A DNA stretch of 64,000 nucleotides from Acidobacteriota bacterium (GTDB lineage Bacteria > Acidobacteriota > Polarisedimenticolia > Gp22-AA2): positions 72 through 64,071 of the forward strand of contig JANNTZ010000191.1 of assembly GCA_031394595.1 (NCBI GenBank), written 5' to 3'. Of this stretch, positions 1 to 43,357 are shown in pieces. Each line of letters starts with the position of its first letter. Within the stretch, counting starts at the first letter, position 1. Below the pieces are notes generated by a model, which did no database searches, was not told the DNA's origin, and was given only the letters and a program-made list of their open reading frames with translations. The position numbers and the translations under genes are program-made.

Positions 1-1472
1 GTCGGTGTGGTCGTCATGATGACGCCGTCGCTGAAGTCGCTCTGGGTCGCCTTCTTAATCTTGTAACCCAGAATGTCGCGCAGGATGGCGTTGCCGCCGA
101 TGGTGTCCGGTTCGTTCGCCAGTGCCGCGGTGTTCGCCTGGACCTCGTCCCACTGGATCAGGACCTGGCTGTCGAGAGGAGTGATCGTCCCGTTGCCGGT
201 GGCGCGGACGTTCAACGGTGTCGCCGGCGTGGTGCTGTTCGACAGCGCCGCGCAGGGCGCGCCCGTCGTGGGGGCCCAGCCGCTGGAGTTGCCGGCGGAA
301 TCCTTGGACTGGACCTGGAAGCACCAGGTGCCGCTCGCCAGGTTGTCATAGAAGGCGTGGGCGTCATAGTCCACGGTGCCGTATTCCTGGTGCGGGTGGG
401 TGAAGCCGCGGGTCGCGAAATTGGTCGGCGACCCGTTCGGCCAGGATTTGACCGACCAGGCGGTGACCCCGGAGGTCGAACCCGGCGGGTCCCATTTCAC
501 CAGGATGCCGCCGCAGTGACCCGGGACCAGGGAGACGTTGGTCGGCGCCGGCGGCGGGGTGATGTCGATGTCCTTGACACCCGATCGGCCGAGGTTCTCG
601 GCGTTGACGTCCGACGACAGGTCGAACTTGCGGAAATGCTGCGCCGCGGCGTCGGCGGTGTCGATGTAGTCCGGGTCTTCGTCCGCCGTCATCCCGACCA
701 GGTTGACCGCGATCCGGCGGACCCGCGCGCGGGTCAGGATCGCCGCGTCGCCACCGCCGATGTCATCGGCGGAACTGGCCGGCGTGTTGGCGTTCAGCAG
801 CACGCCGCTGTCGTCGTAGTACTGGAACGTCATGCTGCGGATGTTCTCGGCCACCGGCTCGAAGACGAACGAGGTGCTGTTCGGCGGGGTCGCCGGGAAG
901 GTCGCCACGTCGGCCAGCGACACGCGGTACAAGGTGTACGGCGGGCTGTCCTGCACCAGGGCGACGTTGGAAATGGTCACGTTCTTCAGGGTCTTGGTCC
1001 GCGGCCGGTCGACATCGGCGCGTAGCGCCATAGTGGCCGGGCCGCTGACACCCGGTTTCGCCAGGACGTACGAGACGATCTCGTCGTTGCCGGTCGAAAC
1101 GATGCTGTAGGCGGTCCCGGGGAGCGACGCCTCCGGGGTGGTGCTGGCGGTCGGATCCTCGAAATCGAAGTCGCCGCGGATGGTGACCGCCGTGTCCCAG
1201 GCCCCCTCGACCTGCTCGTCGATGCGTGTCGTGTCGCCGTCCGGGTTCCAGTTGAACCCGGCCAGACGCAGGTCCGAGAGCATCCGGTCGAAGGCGACCC
1301 GGGTTGACTGCTGCTGGTCGGTGAAGTTCTCGCCCGCCTTGTAGGACTTCTGGGCGGCGGTGTAAAGGATGAACGCCACCGCGGCGGCGATCGCGAAGAT
1401 CGTCGAGGCGACCAACATCTCGATCAAGCTGAACCCACCAACTTCACGCCGGACTTCCTTGGACCTGAGCAC
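1..1472 (-). CDS. Large type IV pilin-like (prepilin N-terminal cleavage/methylation motif) protein, C-terminus runs off window; periplasmic part with Fn3/Ig-like repeats (partial, >490 aa)
   Basis: Manual minus-strand translation in the high-GC3 frame: GTG at 1472 preceded by GGAGGA RBS gives MLRSKEVRREVGG|FSLIEMLVASTIFAIAAAVAFILY, a canonical prepilin leader and hydrophobic helix. The downstream sequence (PPAPTNVSLVPGHCGGILVKWDPPGSTSGVTAWSV..., WCFQVQSKDSAGNSSGWAP) looks like beta-sandwich repeats. The ORF continues past coordinate 1 and is absent from the ORF track because it is truncated. Confidence 0.55.
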   Translation of the reverse strand, partial: MLRSKEVRREVGGFSLIEMLVASTIFAIAAAVAFILYTAAQKSYKAGENFTDQQQSTRVAFDRMLSDLRLAGFNWNPDGDTTRIDEQVEGAWDTAVTIRGDFDFEDPTASTTPEASLPGTAYSIVSTGNDEIVSYVLAKPGVSGPATMALRADVDRPRTKTLKNVTISNVALVQDSPPYTLYRVSLADVATFPATPPNSTSFVFEPVAENIRSMTFQYYDDSGVLLNANTPASSADDIGGGDAAILTRARVRRIAVNLVGMTADEDPDYIDTADAAAQHFRKFDLSSDVNAENLGRSGVKDIDITPPPAPTNVSLVPGHCGGILVKWDPPGSTSGVTAWSVKSWPNGSPTNFATRGFTHPHQEYGTVDYDAHAFYDNLASGTWCFQVQSKDSAGNSSGWAPTTGAPCAALSNSTTPATPLNVRATGNGTITPLDSQVLIQWDEVQANTAALANEPDTIGGNAILRDILGYKIKKATQSDFSDGVIMTTTP

Positions 1473-1516: not shown

Positions 1517-1966
1517 TCAGAACCTGGTGGTCGACAGTCGCACCGTCTGCGGCCGTCCCAGTTCGTTCCACGTCAAGTTGACATTGATCCGGATCCCGGT
1601 CGCGCTGCCGAAGTTCGGCGTCCCGGCTCCCATCGGCGTGATCGCCACTGACGCCACGCCGCCTTCCAGCTTGCGGCTGATCTCGGTCTGCCAGGCTTCG
1701 ATGGCGCTGCCGCTGACATTGCTGAACACCGTGTGCGTGGTCGCGGTCGACGCCGCTCCGAGGTCGACGTAGAGCGCCGTGAACGAGCGGGTGTCGAACG
1801 ACTCCATGATGTCGTGACACAGGGCGGTCGCCTGGGTCATCGTCTTGCCGACCTTCACCTGCCGCCCGCCCAACAGGAACATCGAGGAGATCGACACCAG
1901 GACCCCGGACAGAACACCGATCGCGATGATGACTTCAATCAGGCTGAATCCCTTTTCCTGTTTCAT
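1517..1966 (-). CDS. Minor pilin / pseudopilin (prepilin-type N-terminal domain)
   Basis: N-terminus MKQEKG|FSLIEVIIAIGVLSGVLV is a classic prepilin peptidase motif. GAGGA RBS sits 5 nt upstream of ATG 1966. An alternative ATG at 1978 overlaps the upstream stop as ATGA. The listed ORF 1517..2551 has a spurious upstream extension. Confidence 0.65.
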   Translation of the reverse strand: MKQEKGFSLIEVIIAIGVLSGVLVSISSMFLLGGRQVKVGKTMTQATALCHDIMESFDTRSFTALYVDLGAASTATTHTVFSNVSGSAIEAWQTEISRKLEGGVASVAITPMGAGTPNFGSATGIRINVNLTWNELGRPQTVRLSTTRF

Positions 1967-1974
1967 CGGGTTCC

Positions 1975-2481
1975 TCATGGCGTGTAGGTGGCGTACGTCG
2001 ACGAGACCTGGCCGGTCGGCGTGACGCTGACCGTGTAACGGTCCCCGCGCGACCCGTTGATGTCCATGCTGAAGATGACGTTCAGCGTGGAGGTCACCGT
2101 CGTGCTCCCCCTGTTGGTGAACGCGACGCTGGTGGCGCTGGTATTCTCGATTTCCACGCCGTCGAACTGGACCGTCATCGTCCGGCCGAGCGGATTGAGA
2201 TAGGAATACTGGTTCGGCGCGGTCGAATGGTCGACCCGGTTGATCGTGAGGGTGCGGGTGGCGCGGTTGGTCACCGCCAGGTAACGCTGCGCCCGTATGT
2301 CGGTCGTCAGGTTGTTGGCCGCGGCGCGCACCTTGTACGACTTGTAGGCGTCGGCGAGGGCGGGACCGGCGAATAGGGTGAAGATCCCCAGCAGCGCGAT
2401 CACGACCAGGAGCTCGGACAGCGAGTAGCCGGCCGCCCGCCGATCCCGATCCATCTGCGCTTCCCTGCCTCGAGTTTCCAT
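1975..2481 (-). CDS. Minor pilin / pseudopilin (GspH/FimT-like prepilin-type protein)
   Basis: Contains ...MDRDRRAAG|YSLSELLVVIALLGIFTLFAGPA, a prepilin motif. ATG 2481 has a GGAGGA RBS 4 nt upstream. An alternative start at 2454 would give an 8-aa leader. Confidence 0.6.
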   Translation of the reverse strand: METRGREAQMDRDRRAAGYSLSELLVVIALLGIFTLFAGPALADAYKSYKVRAAANNLTTDIRAQRYLAVTNRATRTLTINRVDHSTAPNQYSYLNPLGRTMTVQFDGVEIENTSATSVAFTNRGSTTVTSTLNVIFSMDINGSRGDRYTVSVTPTGQVSSTYATYTP

Positions 2482-2510
2482 CGAATCCTCCATGCCGCCC
2501 TGTCCGTAGA

Positions 2511-2525
2511 GCAAGGAGGGTGCCA
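2511..2525 (-). promoter_or_regulatory. Sigma-54 (RpoN) promoter, exact TGGCAC-N5-TTGC consensus, upstream of minor-pilin operon
   Basis: Minus strand reads gTGGCACcctccTTGCt (plus 2525..2511). Spacing is exactly -24/-12. It lies ~20-30 nt upstream of the candidate starts at 2493 and 2481, in the gap between the HK stop (2660) and the pilin-like gene. Confidence 0.55.
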
Positions 2526-2659
2526 CGGGGCGCCGGGAGGACCGGACGCACGGAACTCGCGTCCGTTCAGGGAGTTCGAAGGAAGGCCCGGCGCCCCTCC
2601 CCGATCACTGAAGCGTCATCGGGGACGAGGTTGTTACGAGACGTAACACCCCTTGGACT

Positions 2660-4594
2660 TCAGAGAAGCGGGGCGCCGGCCTGATCGCCGGTCCGCCCCG
2701 GGAGGACGATCACCAGCCGTGCGCCGCCACCCGGACGGTTGGCGGCCTCGGCCATGCCGTCGTGCAGGACGGCGATCTTCTGGACGATCGCCAACCCGAG
2801 CCCGGTGCCGCGGTCCTTGGTGGTGAAGAAGGGGGTGAAGACGCGGGGCAGGTCCTCGGGCGGGATCCCGGGGCCGTCATCCTCCACGACGAGACGGAAC
2901 AACCCATCGCCCGGTCCCACCTCCCCGCGAATGACGATGTGGCCGGCACTGGTGGCCGCCCCGTCACGATCGCGGATCGCCTCCGCGGCGTTGCGGACCA
3001 GGTTGTGAATCGCCTGGCGGAGGAGTCGCGGGTCGGCCCACAGACGTGGAAAGGTCCCCTCGACCGTGATCGCGATCCCCCCGACCTGGGGATCGTCGCG
3101 GAGGTCGCGCGCCAGGTCGCGGACGATGGTTGCCGATTCCACCGGCGCGACGTCGAGACGCTCGGGACGGGCGAACTGCAGGAAGTCCTGGACTACCTTC
3201 TCGACGTCGTGGATCTCCCGCAGGATAGTCTCGGCGTTTTCCCGCACCGCCGTGTGCCCGTTGCCGTCCGCCGGCAGACCGCGGACGATCAGCCGGGCCA
3301 GACCCTGGATGGTGGCCAGGGAATTGCGGAATTCGTGCGCGATCCCGGCCGACATCTCCCCCAGCGCCGCGAGGTTGTCCCGGATTCCGACCCGCTCGCG
3401 CAGCGTCTTGATCTCGGTCAGGTCGGCCAGCAGACACAGGACCCCCTCGATCGCCTCCCCGGGGCCGCCGGCCCCGCTCCGGATCGGCGAGACCATGGCG
3501 CCGAGATGGGCGGCGCGCCCACCCGGCCCGGAAAGCGGCACCATCTCCCGTGAAAACGCTTCGCCGTTCCGCAGCGACCTCCCCACCAGGTCGACGAGTC
3601 GATCGGCGCCGCCGATCAAGTCGCCGTATTTCCGGCCGATTGCCGAGGAGCGCTGCAGCCCGAGCAGCGCCTCGGCGGCCGGATTGAGGACGGTGAGCCG
3701 GCCGTCACCATCGAACACCAGCACGGCGCTGCTCATCCCTCCGACCAGGTGGTCGCCCGGCAGGATCCGGGGGTCGGGCGTTCCGCCGGCCGGACGCTTC
3801 AAGCGCTGCAGTTCCCCCTCCTGATCGCGCAGCTTGTCGAGCACCCCCTGGAACGCTCCGACCAGCCAGTCGGGCTCGTCCCGCGGTGCCGCCCCGCCGA
3901 TCCCGGCCAGCGCGCCGGGCGCCTGCCCCGCGGCGCGCATCAGGCGCCGGTAGGGCTGCATCAGCCAGCGGGCAAAACCGACCACCAGCCCCACCAGGAA
4001 CAGCAGACTGACCGCCTGGACCCCCGCGATCAACAGGAGATTGAAATGCACCGCCGCCAGGACCGGCACCTCCGACTGCACCCGGACGATCGCGAGGGTG
4101 GCACGACTGCGGTCCTGGATCGGGCGGTAGGCGGCGAGTCGGGCCCGACGGGACTGTGGTCCCCTCTCCACTTCGGACAGCACGCCGGCGCCGGACAGCA
4201 ACCGGCGACGGTCACCGTCCCGGGACGCCAGGAACGGATCGTCGTGACCGACGCGGGTCGCATCGGACGACGACAGGACATGACCGTCGAGGTTCAGGAT
4301 CTCGACGGCGGTCATTCCCTTGAGACGTGCCAGGCGATCGAGGAAGGTCGGCGGGATGTAGGGAACGGCGCCCGCCGGTTCGCGCAGACCGCGCAGCATC
4401 TGGTCGCGCTCCAGTTCGACCCTGATCAAGTCGGCCTCCAGGAGCAGCCGCCGTCCGGTCTCGTCCTCGATGGCGTCGCGCGCCGTCATCAGGAGCTGCA
4501 CGTTGAGCAGGATGGCGGCCGCCAGGAACAGGACCAGGAGTCCCAGGACGATCTTGATCTGCCCTTCGTACGACCCGAGCGGCGAGATCTTCAC
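2660..4594 (-). CDS. Sensor histidine kinase (2 TM, PAS, HisKA, HATPase_c), PilS2-like orphan kinase
   Basis: HisKA H-box EMSAGIAHEFRNSLATIQGL and HATPase motifs VEDDGPGIPPEDLPRVFTPFFTTKDRGTGLGLAIV. N-terminal TM helix IVLGLLVLFLAAAILL. GTG start at 4594 overlaps the pilD stop as GTGA. The ORF-track N-terminal 107 aa is a spurious extension into pilD. Confidence 0.75.
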   Translation of the reverse strand: MKISPLGSYEGQIKIVLGLLVLFLAAAILLNVQLLMTARDAIEDETGRRLLLEADLIRVELERDQMLRGLREPAGAVPYIPPTFLDRLARLKGMTAVEILNLDGHVLSSSDATRVGHDDPFLASRDGDRRRLLSGAGVLSEVERGPQSRRARLAAYRPIQDRSRATLAIVRVQSEVPVLAAVHFNLLLIAGVQAVSLLFLVGLVVGFARWLMQPYRRLMRAAGQAPGALAGIGGAAPRDEPDWLVGAFQGVLDKLRDQEGELQRLKRPAGGTPDPRILPGDHLVGGMSSAVLVFDGDGRLTVLNPAAEALLGLQRSSAIGRKYGDLIGGADRLVDLVGRSLRNGEAFSREMVPLSGPGGRAAHLGAMVSPIRSGAGGPGEAIEGVLCLLADLTEIKTLRERVGIRDNLAALGEMSAGIAHEFRNSLATIQGLARLIVRGLPADGNGHTAVRENAETILREIHDVEKVVQDFLQFARPERLDVAPVESATIVRDLARDLRDDPQVGGIAITVEGTFPRLWADPRLLRQAIHNLVRNAAEAIRDRDGAATSAGHIVIRGEVGPGDGLFRLVVEDDGPGIPPEDLPRVFTPFFTTKDRGTGLGLAIVQKIAVLHDGMAEAANRPGGGARLVIVLPGRTGDQAGAPLL

Positions 4595-5430
4595 GGCCCG
4601 AACCCGGCGAGACCGAGGTACCAGTCGACCCACGGGCGTCCGACGAGGATGGCCACGATCCCGGCGGCGCCGAGAAAGACCCCGAGCGGCAGGCGCGACT
4701 TCCAGCCGTAACCCCGCAGCCGCATCAGGGCCAGCCCGACGACGGCTCCTGCAATATTGCCGAGGAACAGGACGAACAGCAGGACCGCGGGGCCGAGGAA
4801 GGCGCCGATCATCGCCAGGAGCTTGAAGTCCCCCTGGCCGATCCCGTCCTCGCGTGCGGCCCGCGGCACCCGCCGGATCGCCTGCCAGGCGTGGTACAGG
4901 GCGTTGATCGCCCACGGGATGGCGTAACCGAGAAGGGCGCCGGCGAACGCCTCCCGCACCGGGCCCTCCGGTCCGATCAGGCTCCCGGCGCCGGGGCGCA
5001 GGAGACTGAAGGCCAGACCGACGGCGATCCCGGGGAGCGTCAGGGCGTCGGGCAGGATCTGGTGCCGGTAGTCGATGATCATCAGCGCGATGAGCGATGC
5101 GCCAAGCCAGGCCTGGTCAAGAAACGCCGGGGTCGGGCCGCGCAGCAGGAACAGCACGAGAAACAGCAGCGCCGTCGCCGCCTCCACCGCCGGGTAAGTC
5201 CAGGCGATCGGCGCCCGGCACCGGCGGCAGCGGGCGCCGAGGAGGATCCACGAGAGGACCGGCAGGTTGTCGTACCAGGCGATCGGTGCGGCACAGGCCG
5301 GGCAGGAGGACCGCGGATGGACGATCGACCGCCGTTCCGGCATCCGGTGGATGCAGACGTTCAAGAACGATCCGACACAGGCGCCGAGCGCGGCGGCGAA
5401 GGCGGCGAGCGCGGCTGGTGGCAGGATCAC
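4591..5430 (-). CDS. pilD: Prepilin peptidase (A24 family, PilD/GspO)
   Basis: CPACAAPIAW...CRRCRAPI zinc-binding tetra-Cys region and DGIGQGDFKLLAMIGAFLG catalytic-region motif. Multiple TM segments; 279 aa. Confidence 0.85.
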   Translation of the reverse strand: MILPPAALAAFAAALGACVGSFLNVCIHRMPERRSIVHPRSSCPACAAPIAWYDNLPVLSWILLGARCRRCRAPIAWTYPAVEAATALLFLVLFLLRGPTPAFLDQAWLGASLIALMIIDYRHQILPDALTLPGIAVGLAFSLLRPGAGSLIGPEGPVREAFAGALLGYAIPWAINALYHAWQAIRRVPRAAREDGIGQGDFKLLAMIGAFLGPAVLLFVLFLGNIAGAVVGLALMRLRGYGWKSRLPLGVFLGAAGIVAILVGRPWVDWYLGLAGFGP

Positions 5431-30948: not shown

Positions 30949-31440
30949 TTAGGTCTGGGTACCCTGCGGCCACTGGTAGAACTGGCCGTTCACGAACACG
31001 ATGTCGCAGTTGAAATTGCCCGTCTGCACCGCCGCGTCCGCGTTGTCGGTCGCATCCTTCGCCCAGCTCTCGATCGTGTACATAGTGCCGTTCGCGTCCG
31101 AGGCAAACTCCCAAACGGTGTTCCAGCCGTCGTTGGCCGGGACCGTCCGGATGTAGATCGGCGCGATGTTGGCCGTCGGCACCGTGGCCTGGTTCTTCGG
31201 ATAGAAGTTGTTGTCCACGGCGTAGGACTCGACGGCCGTTCCGATGGAGCGCATATCGGCCATCGACCTCTTCTGCTTGCCTCTGTCGATGGCGTTCAGC
31301 AGGTTGGGAATCGCGATGGCCGCGATAATCCCGATGATCGCCACGACGATCAGCAGCTCGATCAACGTGAAGCCCTTCTCTCTCTTCAACAGTCGTGTGG
31401 TCTCCTCTCGGCAGGGTGTGAAGAGCAAGTCCGATGCCAC
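30949..31440 (-). CDS. pilA: Type IV major pilin (PilA-like; GspG-like N-terminal domain)
   Basis: ...KREKG|FTLIELLIVVAIIGIIAAIAIPNLL is a perfect class III signal and N-terminal helix. The product is small (mature ~139 aa), Ser/Thr-rich, and ends PQGTQT. Start is uncertain: GTG 31440 (ORF track), or TTG 31389 giving MKREKG|FTLIE with an AGGAG 13 nt upstream. Confidence 0.8.
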   Translation of the reverse strand: MASDLLFTPCREETTRLLKREKGFTLIELLIVVAIIGIIAAIAIPNLLNAIDRGKQKRSMADMRSIGTAVESYAVDNNFYPKNQATVPTANIAPIYIRTVPANDGWNTVWEFASDANGTMYTIESWAKDATDNADAAVQTGNFNCDIVFVNGQFYQWPQGTQT

Positions 31441-31588
31441 CCTCCCCTGCTGTCCGATGGAGCCCGCAGGCTGTTGGATTCACAGGGTTTGCCGCAGCGA
31501 TTTCATTTCCGCCCCACCGCTCCCCGCCGGATCGAGCCCTGAACTAACAACGCGTGTCAAGCACGGCATCCGCGGCTGACAGTCAGTG

Positions 31589-33406
31589 TCACCCGCCGGC
31601 AGCGGCGCCGCTTGCCGCCGGCCGGGTCCCGGAAGGGTCGGTCAGCGGTCGGAAACGGGCCGCGAGGATCCTGGCGCGTTCGCAGCCTGGATCCTCGCGA
31701 AGCTTCCGCCGCAGTTCCTCCAGGATCGGATGGACATCGACCCGGCCGACGAGGGCCCCGCCGTACAGGTAGAGCCAGTCGTCCGGGTGGATGGCGCGAT
31801 ACTCGCAGCGCTCGATGGTCGCGGCGTGCCCGGCGGTGCGTCTCAGGAAAACCATGGCATCGTCGTCCCAGTAGACCAGCGCCCAGTCGTGGCGCGGAAA
31901 ATAGGCCGCCGAGAAGGCGCGCTCCGCCGCGATCGGCGGCCCGCCCGGCCGGCCCGGGTAGTGGACCCTCTGCAGCGTCGGCGGGTAGCGCAGCAGGGCC
32001 GCGTCGATCCCGTGCCGGTCGAGCATCGTCTTCCAGGAGGAGGCGTCGCGCAGGCCTCCGAAGACCTCCCGCAGCAGATCCGGGTAGACCTCGTTGCGCC
32101 CGTCCATGAACACCGCCCGTTCGGGGAAACGTCGCCAGATCAGGTAGCCGCCGAACTTGACGTCGTTGAAGAGTCGGGCCCCCACCCCTTCGTGCTCCAG
32201 GAAATCGACCGCGGAACGCGGTTCATTGCCCGCCGCGATTCCCCAACCCCAGTTGATTCCCGGCGGCAGCAGGACCAGCGCCGGGATCGATGCGACGATC
32301 AGGACGGCGGCCGCGACGAACCCCGGCCGGACCTTTCCCCCCGCGGTGGCGACCCGCCAGACTCCGGTCGCCTGCGCGGCGTTCACCAGCGCCCTGGCCG
32401 GGCGCGCCAGCCCGAAGGGAAGGAGGACGAAGAACAGGCCGATGTTCCGCAGGTGCAGCACGGCGATGGCCCCCGAGAGAATCAGGGCGGGCGTCGCCAC
32501 CGGATCGATGTGACGCCAACCGAGCGCCACGACCAGCGCGACGACCGGGATGACGATCCAGAAAAGCGGGAACTCCGCAAACCCGGGGCGTGCCCATTCG
32601 AGGTTGGGCGCGGGGAGATCCGCCAGGATCCGATCGATGGTCGGCGGCAACGAATAGATCCGGAATCCGTACGGGTTCACGCCGACGGCGAGGGCCGCCA
32701 AAGCCGCCGCGAGCGCCAGCCGCGCCACCGGCCAGGACCGCGACGCCGGACCGGACGCGGCCGGCGCGATCCACCGATCCCACACCAGGGTCGCAGCCGC
32801 TGCGAGGAGAAGAAAGGCCGGGGCGAGGACGACACCGGGATGGAGATTGGCCCAGAGGCCGACGAGCACCGGCGTCCACAGGAGGGGCGCCGCCCGCCGC
32901 GTGTCACGGACCCGCTGAGCCAGGATCAGGAGGCAGGGCGCCGCCACGAGCGTCGCCAGTTCGGGGCGGACATCGAACCGGAACGCGGCGCCGATCAATG
33001 CCGGCGCCAGCAGGAACGCGGTCCCGGCCGGTCCGTGCCCCTCGCGGCGCACCGCCCCCGCCGCCAGGAACCCGACCCCGGCCACCAGCGCGACCTTGAC
33101 CAGGACCAGGAACTCCGGGCCCCAGGCGGTGTGCGCCAGGTACGCGAGGACCTGGAACAGCCAGGATCCGTCGACCCAGGGAACTCCCGCCGCCGTGAAC
33201 GAGAAGGGATCGTGGCGCGGGATCGCCCCGTGCTCGAGGATCAGTCGCCCGGTGGCGAGATGCCACCAGTAATCGAAATTCCGGATCGGGCTCAGCGCGG
33301 CCGCCACGGCCAGGACCATGAGCAGGCCGTGGATCAGGAACCGATCTCCCTGCGGCTCGGGGCGCGCGTCGGTCTTCCCGGCGGGCCCGGTCGTGGTCCC
33401 GATCAC
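31589..33406 (-). CDS. Large polytopic membrane protein, GT-C-fold glycosyltransferase-like (N-terminal TM bundle plus C-terminal periplasmic domain)
   Basis: 605 aa with >=10 hydrophobic helices in the first ~400 aa. Conserved-looking first loop IRNFDYWWHLATGRLILEHGAIPRHDPFSF. The C-terminal ~180 aa is soluble. Family not recognised with certainty. Confidence 0.45.
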   Translation of the reverse strand: MIGTTTGPAGKTDARPEPQGDRFLIHGLLMVLAVAAALSPIRNFDYWWHLATGRLILEHGAIPRHDPFSFTAAGVPWVDGSWLFQVLAYLAHTAWGPEFLVLVKVALVAGVGFLAAGAVRREGHGPAGTAFLLAPALIGAAFRFDVRPELATLVAAPCLLILAQRVRDTRRAAPLLWTPVLVGLWANLHPGVVLAPAFLLLAAAATLVWDRWIAPAASGPASRSWPVARLALAAALAALAVGVNPYGFRIYSLPPTIDRILADLPAPNLEWARPGFAEFPLFWIVIPVVALVVALGWRHIDPVATPALILSGAIAVLHLRNIGLFFVLLPFGLARPARALVNAAQATGVWRVATAGGKVRPGFVAAAVLIVASIPALVLLPPGINWGWGIAAGNEPRSAVDFLEHEGVGARLFNDVKFGGYLIWRRFPERAVFMDGRNEVYPDLLREVFGGLRDASSWKTMLDRHGIDAALLRYPPTLQRVHYPGRPGGPPIAAERAFSAAYFPRHDWALVYWDDDAMVFLRRTAGHAATIERCEYRAIHPDDWLYLYGGALVGRVDVHPILEELRRKLREDPGCERARILAARFRPLTDPSGTRPAASGAAAGG

Positions 33407-35889: not shown

Positions 35890-37274
<1,385 letters not shown>

Positions 37275-37290
<16 letters not shown>

Positions 37291-38948
37291 ACGGCCTCCT
37301 CGACGATTCCGCCGGCACGGCGCGGCAGGTGCAGGGAGATCTCGGTTCCTTCGCCGGGGCGGCTCTTGACCCGGATCCGTCCACCATGCTCCTCGATGAT
37401 GCGGTAGACGATCGACAGACCGAGCCCGGTCCCCTGGGGGAACGACCCGTGGAACGGCTGGAAGTTGGAGGCGACGTCACGGTCGGGCATGCCGATCCCC
37501 GTGTCCACGAAGCTGACGACGGCCTCCCCCTCCGCCCCGCGCAGGCGCACCGACAGGGTCCCGCCCCCGGGCATCGCTTTCAGGGCGTTGCGCGCGAGAT
37601 TCCAGAACACCTGTTTCATCCTGTTGATGTCCACGTCGGCCACCAGTCGATCCGGGCCGGGCGCCACCTCGACCCGGTGATGGGGGCGGCGCTCCTCGCT
37701 GTTTTCCAGCAGGCTGAGGGTCTCCCGCAGCAGGCCCACGAGGTCCGTCGTCTCCGCATGGAACCGGCCGGGCTTCGCAAACATCAGGAAGTCCCTGATG
37801 ATCTGGTCCAGCCGTCTTGATTCCTTGACCACGATGTCCATCAACGTCCCCGCATCCCCCGGCGGGTCCAGGTCGCGCTTGAGGACCTGCACGGAGCCGC
37901 TGATCGACGCCAGCGGATTACGCAGTTCGTGCGCGACCCCGGCCGCCATCTCGCCGAGCGCGGCCATTCGTTTCTTGAGTGCCACTTCCTCTTCCAGGGC
38001 CCGGATCTCGGTGAGGTCCTGGAAGATGAAGATCAACCCCAGCGCTTCGCCGGCGCGACTGAGCAGCGGCGAGACCGTGAACCCGAGGAACAGCGACCGG
38101 CCCCGCCCGTCCTCGTAGTCGATCTCGAAGCGGCAGCGGCTGTCCTTCTCCAGAGCGGCGCGGATCCGACCGATCAACCCCCGCTCCTGGCGCAGGACCG
38201 CCTCGAAGTCGCGTCCCAGCAGGTCCGCCAGCGTACGCCCGGTGATCTCCAGGGCGGCGCGGTTGGCGAAGGTCAACCGCCCTTCCGCGTCGGTGGTGAC
38301 CAGCCCGGTGTTCAGGCTGTCGATGATGTTGGCGTGGTACTCGCGCAGGTCGGCCAGGTCGTCCCGTCGCAGCTGCAGCTCGTGGCCCGCGCGCCGGAGA
38401 TTGTCCGCCAGCGATGACGACAGGTACGCCACGGCGAGGAACGACACCAGGTGCGCCACCAGGCTGTAGAGGACCCGCACCGTCGCGACGTCGCGGTCCC
38501 GGAAGACCTCCTCCGGGTACGACGGCAGCGTGCCCCGGTGCATGAGGATCACCATGACCGCGTACATCGCCCAGGACCCGATCGCCACCGCGAACCCGCC
38601 GTAGCGCGCCGGCAGGATGCTGCCGATGATGATCGACAGGAGATAGAGGAAGGAGAACGGGCTTTCCGTGCCCCCCGTCAGGTAGACGAACCCCGTGACC
38701 ACGGCCAGATCGCCCACCATCTGGACGACGACCTGGGCCCCGGGCCGGGCGGTCCGGGTCAGGACCGCGTAGCCGATGGTCAGAAGATAAGTGACCGCCG
38801 CCAGCATGTAGAACGGTTTGAGGGACAGGAGCGGCCGGTAGAGCAGCTCGATGACGAAGGTGCAGGCCAGCAGGGTCGTGATGATCACGACCCGGAATGT
38901 CATGAGCCAATCGAGCTGGCGCCTGAGCTCGCGCTGCGGCCGGTCCAT
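37275..38948 (-). CDS. pilS: Sensor histidine kinase PilS (multi-TM N-terminus, PAS, HisKA, HATPase_c)
   Basis: Six N-terminal TM helices. H-box ALGEMAAGVAHELRNPLASI. N/G boxes NLARNALKAM..., GTGLGLSIVYRIIEEHGG. Confidence 0.8.
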
Positions 38949-43141: not shown

Positions 43142-43357
43142 GTGAAATGCGTAAAAATACCTACGGAATTTTGACGCTGTGACAACACGCGTCTAACGGC
43201 AAACGACTAGAACTCACAAGCTATTGAATATAAATAACTTATTTTCTTTCAGCTGCGGGGATGTTGGAACGAGTCTTGCTGGAGAATTCCCAATAATGGC
43301 AGGCCGGAGGCCCGGCTGACTGGCCGGTACCGCCGGAATCGCGGGCAATCAGGACGG

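Follow-up and report, generated by a model that had tools for sequence, protein, structure and literature searches.

We analyzed a 64-kb stretch (64,000 nucleotides, 68.6% G+C, hereafter the window) of contig JANNTZ010000191.1 from an acidobacterium, and in particular a predicted sigma-54 promoter of the -24/-12 type at 2525..2510 that lies between the gene for an orphan sensor histidine kinase and an operon of minor-pilin-like genes. What is new is a widely conserved module of putative sigma-54 promoter and predicted enhancer for the minor pilins, situated beside the orphan kinase gene and distinct from the module at pilA.

Gene content and conserved gene order

The window derives from a metagenome assembly, and the names given to homologues put the organism among the Acidobacteriota, for the most part in 'Ca. 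Polarisedimenticolia'. It constitutes one large and complete type IVa pilus locus with nearly all of its genes on the minus strand. These include pilM, pilO and the secretin gene pilQ; pilB, pilT, pilC, pilS and pilR; a YfhO-like gene and an unknown gene; pilA; and two Wzy_C genes, a glycosyltransferase block, ABC transporter genes, pilD, the kinase gene, the promoter site and three prepilin-like genes. The first gene of the operon, pil1 (1975..2481, minus strand), encodes a GspH/FimT/FimU-like prepilin-type protein of 168 amino acids, whose GspH/XpsH-like match is weak and below the cut-off and whose homologues are labelled FimT/FimU by JGI. The second, pil2 (1517..1966, minus strand, from the gene call), encodes a weakly PilV-like prepilin-type protein of 149 amino acids, and pil3 (1..1472, minus strand), a large prepilin-type gene, is cut by the left end of the window. 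The N_methyl match is significant in all three products, and the GspH and PilV matches fall below the curated cut-offs. These N-methylation motifs bear out the description of the genes as prepilin-like in an initial annotation of this DNA; its count of three genes does not stand, as pil3 runs off the window and a related locus carries a further gene beyond it. That locus (L092, 9200-13878) has a pil3 orthologue of ~920 amino acids, unusually large and with an fn3 domain, directly followed by a gene for a 626-amino-acid protein with a weak PilX_N match (below the cut-off). The operon thus appears to span at least four genes. No regulator gene was found 3' of pil3 within reach of the loci examined, the PilX_N-like gene being there instead.

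The kinase gene (2660..4594, minus strand) encodes a sensor region followed by PAS, HisKA and HATPase domains (Pfam) with the H-box AHEFRNSLA, and its start overlaps the stop codon of the prepilin peptidase gene pilD (4591..5430, minus strand; A24_N_bact and Peptidase_A24). Its H-box is AtoS/ZraS-like and its closest NCBIfam models are AtoS/ZraS, below the cut-off, a kinase family that pairs with sigma-54 activators. The label 'PilS2-like' given to it earlier finds its justification in gene order alone, the kinase gene following pilD as in Myxococcus. The kinase gene is indeed without a response regulator nearby, and no response regulator other than PilR is encoded in the window. PilR itself (35890..37290, minus strand; receiver, AAA+ and HTH_8 by Pfam, with GSFTGA in the motif scan) adjoins PilS (37275..38948). 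Domain and motif scans agree with the initial annotation that it is the only sigma-54 activator in the window, since no other protein there has a sigma-54 interaction domain or a GAFTGA-type motif.

To place these genes in context we collected 160 loci in which the kinase could be aligned, drawn from GTDB species genomes and JGI metagenomes and mapped by tblastn with the window proteins. The order pilD-kinase-pil1-pil2-pil3 is kept in more than 40 loci; the clade of the window conserves the fuller order ABC2-TPR-pilD-kinase-pil1-pil2-pil3, and loci of Thermoanaerobaculia and Holophagales type have the shorter form pilD-kinase-pilins.

The -24/-12 element ahead of pil1

An exact copy of TGGCAC-N5-TTGC with correct spacing lies on the minus strand ahead of pil1, as had been reported, and agrees at all core positions. 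The element (TGGCACCCTCCTTGCT, 2510..2525) reads TGGCACcctccTTGCT, or gTGGCACcctccTTGCt, from 2525 to 2510; its GG (2524-2523) and GC (2512-2511) dinucleotides are spaced exactly 10 nt inside TGGCAC-N5-TTGCW. Set against the longer sigma-54 consensus, YTGGCACGrNNNTTGCW, it agrees in TGGCAC, TTGC and W and disagrees in Y, G and r of the flanks. No other exact instance exists on either strand of the window, where 0.09 would be expected; at least one match occurred in nine of 100 dinucleotide-preserving shuffles, and matches with up to two mismatches are not enriched (46 observed, 50 expected). Taken alone, the single exact match is suggestive, short of proof.

The surroundings of the element fit a promoter for pil1. 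The C of the -12 GC lies at 2511 and the first in-frame ATG at 2493..2491, in keeping with the ~20 nt noted previously between the element and the first candidate start codons. An independent gene call from the source contigs starts pil1 at the ATG at 2481..2479, which is 44 nt from the -24 T (42-50 nt at pilA promoters) and is preceded, 4 nt before it, by a ribosome-binding site GGAGGA read from the sequence (2486..2491, minus strand). Standard sigma-54 geometry, with initiation ~12 nt past the -12 G, predicts a transcription start on the minus strand at 2498..2502, and a start near 2500 would give a leader of ~19 nt that carries the ribosome-binding site. Neither a sigma-70-like promoter nor an intrinsic terminator nor an Rfam family was detected in the kinase-pil1 intergenic region (2300-2800 scanned); the only Rfam match, to SNORD23 with E = 0.62, is due to chance, and a known RNA element was accordingly discarded as a candidate.

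The conservation of the element was evaluated in 52 distinct orthologous kinase-to-pil1 intergenic regions of Acidobacteriota, with a score of at least 13.2 out of 14.4 counted as a hit. On the correct strand 42 of the 52 regions contain the element, against a mean of 0.07 (maximum 1) in dinucleotide shuffles; the opposite strand gave none in 52 regions, and kinase-internal segments of the same length likewise gave none. In the alignment the T, GG, C, A and TGC columns are near-invariant and the 5-nt spacer and the flanks vary, among loci whose kinases range from 86% down to 29% identity. An invariant core in variable surroundings is the pattern expected of a -24/-12 element under selection, and we conclude that 2525..2510 is very probably a genuine sigma-54 promoter. 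The earlier proposal of an enhancer-dependent sigma-54 promoter for the minor-pilin operon thus gains support from this conservation.

Two further observations concern the distribution of such elements. Five contigs (L005, L016, L017, L021 and L026) share the acidobacterial synteny and the promoter but belong to metagenome-assembled genomes titled Binatia, Patescibacteria, Cryosericum or Verrucomicrobiia, and are probably mis-binned or mislabelled. Within the window, a near-consensus sigma-54-like sequence, TGGAACgagtcTTGCT, is present on the plus strand at 43265-43280, in the gap upstream of pilB and on the opposite strand to it; no obvious plus-strand gene follows, and the site is probably a chance occurrence.

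Putative enhancer dyads at the minor-pilin and pilA promoters

A search of 2530-2700 for enhancer repeats, as the initial annotation had suggested, yields two dyads, at 2648..2632 and 2619..2604. The first, M1 (TGTTAC-N5-GTAACA; TGTTACGTCTCGTAACA, 2632..2648, minus strand), was revealed by anchoring the orthologous regions on the promoter; its centre at 2640 is 115 nt upstream of the -24 T and at about -140 from the predicted transcription start. It is the sole copy in the 64 kb, even with up to two mismatches allowed. The inner form GTTAC-N5-GTAAC is present with at most one mismatch in 41 of the 52 regions (0.07 in shuffles), and 40 of the 41 perfect copies in the 1.69 Mb compared are at the 3' end of a kinase orthologue. 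The remaining perfect copy, in locus L066 (7572-7586), lies within a pil3-like gene away from the kinase 3' end and has no sigma-54 site nearby; it is probably a chance occurrence.

The geometry of M1 is tightly constrained. Its spacer is 5 nt in all of 46 distinct promoters, and the T of TGGCAC lies 114-116 nt from the centre of the dyad in 27 promoters (the window included), 93-96 nt in 14 and 125-127 nt in three, with outliers at 103 and 118 nt. These three classes differ by ~10.5 and ~21 nt, which corresponds to roughly one and two turns of the helix. Among promoters of the 93-96 nt class M1 often falls within the kinase coding sequence, and in eight loci of Thermoanaerobaculia/Holophagales type (L050, L057, L058, L068, L070 and L072-L074) it occupies part of the last 20-90 nt of that gene, such that the same bases double as codons and as a predicted protein-binding site. 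M1 was also considered as a terminator for the kinase gene and rejected, because it lacks a T-run and lies inside the kinase coding sequence in some lineages; it is moreover the sequence of the half-sites, rather than their pairing, that is conserved.

The second dyad, M2 (TNAC-N6-GTNA; ATGACGCTTCAGTGAT, 2604..2619, minus strand), is more degenerate and emerges as a block in the anchored alignment, at about -112 and with its centre 28.5 nt downstream of that of M1; in the window it takes the form TGAC-N6-GTGA. It is the only recurrent second dyad, with 13 perfect copies at the offset of 28.5 nt and no more than one at any other offset. Positions of about -140 and -112 are classical for NtrC-type activators. 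Between the enhancer and the promoter the alignment consensus contains a moderately conserved AAC...CAGnT patch (2550..2577, minus strand), a possible DNA-bending site of the integration host factor (IHF) type; matches to the IHF consensus are weakly above shuffles (mean best mismatch 2.63 versus 3.41).

The pilA promoter offers an internal comparison. The window pilA gene (30949..31389, with a TTG start) is preceded on the minus strand by the sigma-54-type element TGGCATCGGACTTGCT (TGGCAT-N5-TTGCT, 31424..31439), which reads TGGCATcggacTTGCT from 31439 to 31424. For comparison we took eight loci spanning pilR to pilA from relatives; their PilR shares 70-83% identity with that of the window, and the gene order is conserved. 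In eight of the nine loci TGGCAT-N5-TTGCT stands 42-50 nt before the pilA start. The ninth (L166, 14744-14950) has both pilA dyads, and the promoter would be expected at a position within the called open reading frame; the called pilA start is probably ~48 nt too far upstream.

Two enhancer dyads, A1 (TGACACTGACTGTCA, 31591..31577) and A2 (TGACACGCGTTGTTA, 31559..31545), lie 32 bp apart on the minus strand upstream of the window pilA element. A1, of the form TGAC-N7-GTCA and overlapping the stop codon of the gene preceding pilA, is found at all nine loci, with 145-147 or 136-137 nt separating it from the -24 T, and A2 (TGAC-N7-GTTA) forms a perfect dyad exactly 32 bp downstream of A1 at six of them. 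All dyads at pilA enhancer positions have an N7 spacer. Between the two promoter groups (nine pilA loci and 46 minor-pilin promoters) the distal site is therefore TGAC-N7-GTCA in the one and TTAC-N5-GTAA in the other, and the proximal site TGAC-N7-GTTA and TNAC-N6-GTNA, respectively. The distinction holds in both directions, as M1 is absent from the eight pilR-pilA loci and from the window outside 2632-2648, and the N7 TGAC sites that define the pilA enhancer do not occur at the minor-pilin region, where TTAC-N5-GTAA and TGAC-N6-GTGA are found.

The genes next to pilA merit a remark of their own. Two Wzy_C (O-antigen-ligase-like) genes stand right after pilA, at the head of a minus-strand block at 9172-30872 that continues with two asparagine-synthase-like genes, several glycosyltransferases, a heparinase II/III-like gene and oxidoreductases. 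In every relative examined the two Wzy_C genes adjoin pilA, suggesting that the pilin is glycosylated.

Candidate activators and regulatory wiring

Since the two enhancer classes are distinct within the same genomes, two different activators are the simplest explanation. The orphan kinase would be the obvious candidate sensor for the second, because it is encoded beside the target promoter in every related genome examined, has an H-box and best model matches of the AtoS/ZraS type and differs from PilS. The two kinases share 30% identity, with several differing positions in the helix after the phospho-accepting histidine; we considered a specificity shared between the kinase and PilS, and the low identity and differing phosphotransfer helices are not decisive on it either way. 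In the model that we favor, sigma-54 RNA polymerase would bind TGGCAC-N5-TTGCT (2525..2510) as a closed complex, and an NtrC-family enhancer-binding protein would occupy M1 at about -140 and probably also the weaker M2 at about -112. Looping of the DNA and ATP hydrolysis would then open the promoter, with transcription starting near 2500 and translation proceeding from the ATG at 2481 behind GGAGGA. The operon would supply this uncultured acidobacterium, a relative of 'Ca. Polarisedimenticolia', with the minor pilins and tip proteins of its type IV pilus. The activator would be an unlinked response regulator, the partner of the AtoS/ZraS-like orphan kinase, and PilR would serve pilA through its different sites. 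We regard this model as a whole, including a non-PilR activator partnered with the kinase, as rather probable. Wiring either to PilR or to an unlinked PilR2 had been put forward at the outset; an unlinked activator is now favored and PilR disfavored, as the pilA sites differ and M1 is absent there.

Several points weigh against this model. Its evidence is computational throughout, and many of the loci are mutually related, such that fewer observations are independent than the counts suggest; variation among the spacers and the presence of three spacing classes count against simple inheritance. No enhancer-binding protein gene was found within ~6 kb of the kinase gene in more than 40 loci of the window's clade. 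There is no rpoN in the 64-kb window, its presence in the genome being implied by PilR and the pilA promoter. With no terminator after the kinase gene, read-through from pilD and the kinase gene may also express the pilins. Finally, a T-N-A-C...G-T-N-A skeleton is common to all of the dyads, with spacers of 5, 6 or 7 nt, and a PilR dimer with enough flexibility might recognise both kinds of enhancer.

The last of these points belongs to the alternative that survives best, namely that the sigma-54 promoter is real, that PilR activates both pilA and the minor-pilin operon, and that the orphan kinase feeds into PilR as a second input. The pilR gene belongs to this pilus locus and its product is very highly conserved (70-95% identity), the -12 region TTGCTCT is common to both window promoters, and the pilA-proximal site sits, like M1, at 113-115 nt, with the common skeleton in both enhancers. 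A precedent exists in Xanthomonas oryzae, where the mRNA of the fimT-pilVWXYE minor-pilin operon falls in rpoN2 and pilR mutants, as measured by quantitative reverse-transcription PCR (PMC7170775). However, RpoN2 did not bind the fimT promoter in an electrophoretic mobility shift assay, such that direct control was not shown and the effect of the pilR deletion may be indirect (PMC7170775). Unlike in the RpoN2-PilRX case, a direct promoter is argued here, from sequence, by a strongly conserved -24/-12 element with a dedicated enhancer. The dyads also divide consistently within the same genomes, with TGAC half-sites and N7 at pilA (9/9 loci) and TTAC half-sites and N5 at M1 (46 promoters), M1 is missing from the pilR-pilA loci, and the phosphotransfer helices of the kinase and PilS differ at several positions. 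We therefore consider it unlikely that PilR is the activator of the minor-pilin operon.

A less probable alternative accepts the -24/-12 element and takes M1 as the operator of an unrelated dimeric regulator, either a repressor or one acting on the kinase 3' end, with the true activator bound elsewhere or acting from solution. Many helix-turn-helix regulators besides sigma-54 activators typically have short perfect dyads as their sites, and M1 always abuts or overlaps the kinase 3' end. Against this, the distance from M1 to the -24 T is fixed within clades and shifts by about one or two helical turns between them, as for an activator that acts by looping; a second dyad at a fixed offset recalls classical NtrC-type enhancers; and a position at about -140 is typical of an upstream activating sequence. 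The same hexamers are, moreover, the recognition sequence of the sigma-54 activator CbrB (PMC6296734), whose enhancer in Pseudomonas is TGTTAC-N12-14-GTAACA-N15-19-GTAACA at sigma-54 promoters such as crcZ (PMC6296734, PMC8871633). The likeness extends to identical, inverted TGTTAC/GTAACA hexamers upstream of a sigma-54 promoter and to an additional downstream subsite; the spacer of M1 is, however, 5 nt rather than 12-14, and its second element is a different dyad 28.5 nt away, centre to centre, rather than a third subsite 15-19 nt on. CbrAB is described as restricted to Pseudomonadaceae, where it controls carbon metabolism, and no CbrB-like protein was identified here. The CbrB precedent shows these hexamers to be readable by the DNA-binding domain of an NtrC-family protein; M1 is not thereby a CbrB site. 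An operator of an unrelated regulator seems to us improbable.

That the motif arose by chance in GC-rich DNA, the operon being transcribed by read-through alone or from a promoter that escaped recognition, is hardly credible: exact matches do arise in nine of 100 window shuffles, matches with one or two mismatches are not enriched, and no terminator separates the kinase gene from the pilins, but a chance match is ruled out because the element recurs at the same place and on the same strand in 42 of 52 regions, with near-zero counts in the shuffle, opposite-strand and kinase-internal controls and an invariant core in variable surroundings.

The favored model, with a non-PilR activator, may also be set beside known systems. 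The PilS-PilR/sigma-54 systems at pilA in Pseudomonas aeruginosa, Myxococcus xanthus and Geobacter have, as here, a -24/-12 element before a pilin gene, an upstream NtrC-family activator and a PAS-HisKA kinase, and downstream of pilS-pilR the window pilA shows this same arrangement, with TGGCAT-N5-TTGCT and a pair of N7 dyads separated by 32 bp. In contrast, the target at 2525..2510 is a minor-pilin operon with an enhancer of TTAC-N5-GTAA rather than TGAC-N7-GTCA, and the orphan kinase, unlike PilS, has neither the six-transmembrane PilS membrane domain nor an adjacent regulator. A closer match in gene order is pilD-pilS2-pilR2 of M. xanthus, where a second kinase gene likewise directly follows pilD, in a locus of the order pilB-T-C-S-R-A ... 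ABC transporter ... pilD. PilR2 is needed there for pilus-dependent motility independently of PilR (PMC6211767, PMC6060248). In contrast to M. xanthus, no PilR2-type activator gene follows the kinase gene here or in more than 40 related loci, and we found no description of direct PilR2 targets in the literature.

Two other groups of loci were of interest in this regard. In L101-L162 (JGI, Terriglobia-type), pilD is followed by a shorter kinase gene, a gap of ~0.9 kb and a gene for a PilR-like activator 43-46% identical to the window PilR. This layout resembles pilS2/pilR2, and neither the M1 dyad nor a sigma-54 site was found nearby; the kinases match only over residues ~185-632, and the attempt to link M1 to a PilR2-type activator through these loci was abandoned. 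In L033 (6004-13618), from another acidobacterial lineage, a full-length kinase homologue is accompanied by a gene for a GspH-like pilin, a receiver-AAA+-HTH activator gene, one unknown gene, the sequence TGGCACgcccgCTGCT and prepilin-like genes. This may represent a linked version of the circuit, with TGGCACgcccgCTGCT as a sigma-54-type site, and is only suggestive, the M1 dyad being absent.

A dedicated two-component control of minor pilins has a counterpart in P. aeruginosa, where FimS(AlgZ)-AlgR controls fimU-pilVWXY1E separately from the control of pilA by PilSR. AlgR belongs to the LytTR-type regulators rather than to the sigma-54 activators, and its kinase FimS is non-canonical. The arrangement proposed here is alike in dedicating a two-component system to the minor-pilin operon and differs in that the kinase is of PAS-HisKA-HATPase type and that no sigma-70-like promoter was detected in the intergenic region. 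Outside Pseudomonas, with its FimS-AlgR system, the control of minor pilins is poorly known, and direct sigma-54 control of such an operon has not been clearly shown, the nearest case being that of X. oryzae (PMC7170775); our literature search found no paper on sigma-54 control of pili in Acidobacteria. The proposed mechanism is a canonical, textbook one, and the novelty is modest, lying in wiring and annotation rather than in concept.

Pilus assembly is primed by minor pilins, which also make up the tip, and their control thus decides when and how many pili are made. The analysis provides a testable regulatory map for a large uncultured lineage of soils and sediments, consisting of a putative promoter, two dyads, a candidate kinase and the contrast with the pilA enhancer, and with the M1 dyad complete genomes can be searched specifically for the activator and for the remainder of its regulon. 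We give about even chances to the broader proposition that Acidobacteriota of several classes run two parallel sigma-54 circuits with separate enhancers for the type IV pilus, the second composed of the orphan kinase and an unlinked NtrC-type activator that reads TGTTAC-N5-GTAACA. If this is true, the kinase gene has stayed joined to its target promoter, with the enhancer sometimes in the kinase coding sequence, and the regulator gene resides elsewhere; PilS-PilR would set the supply of the major pilin, and the second circuit would set the priming and tip complex of minor pilins, and hence the number or type of pili started.

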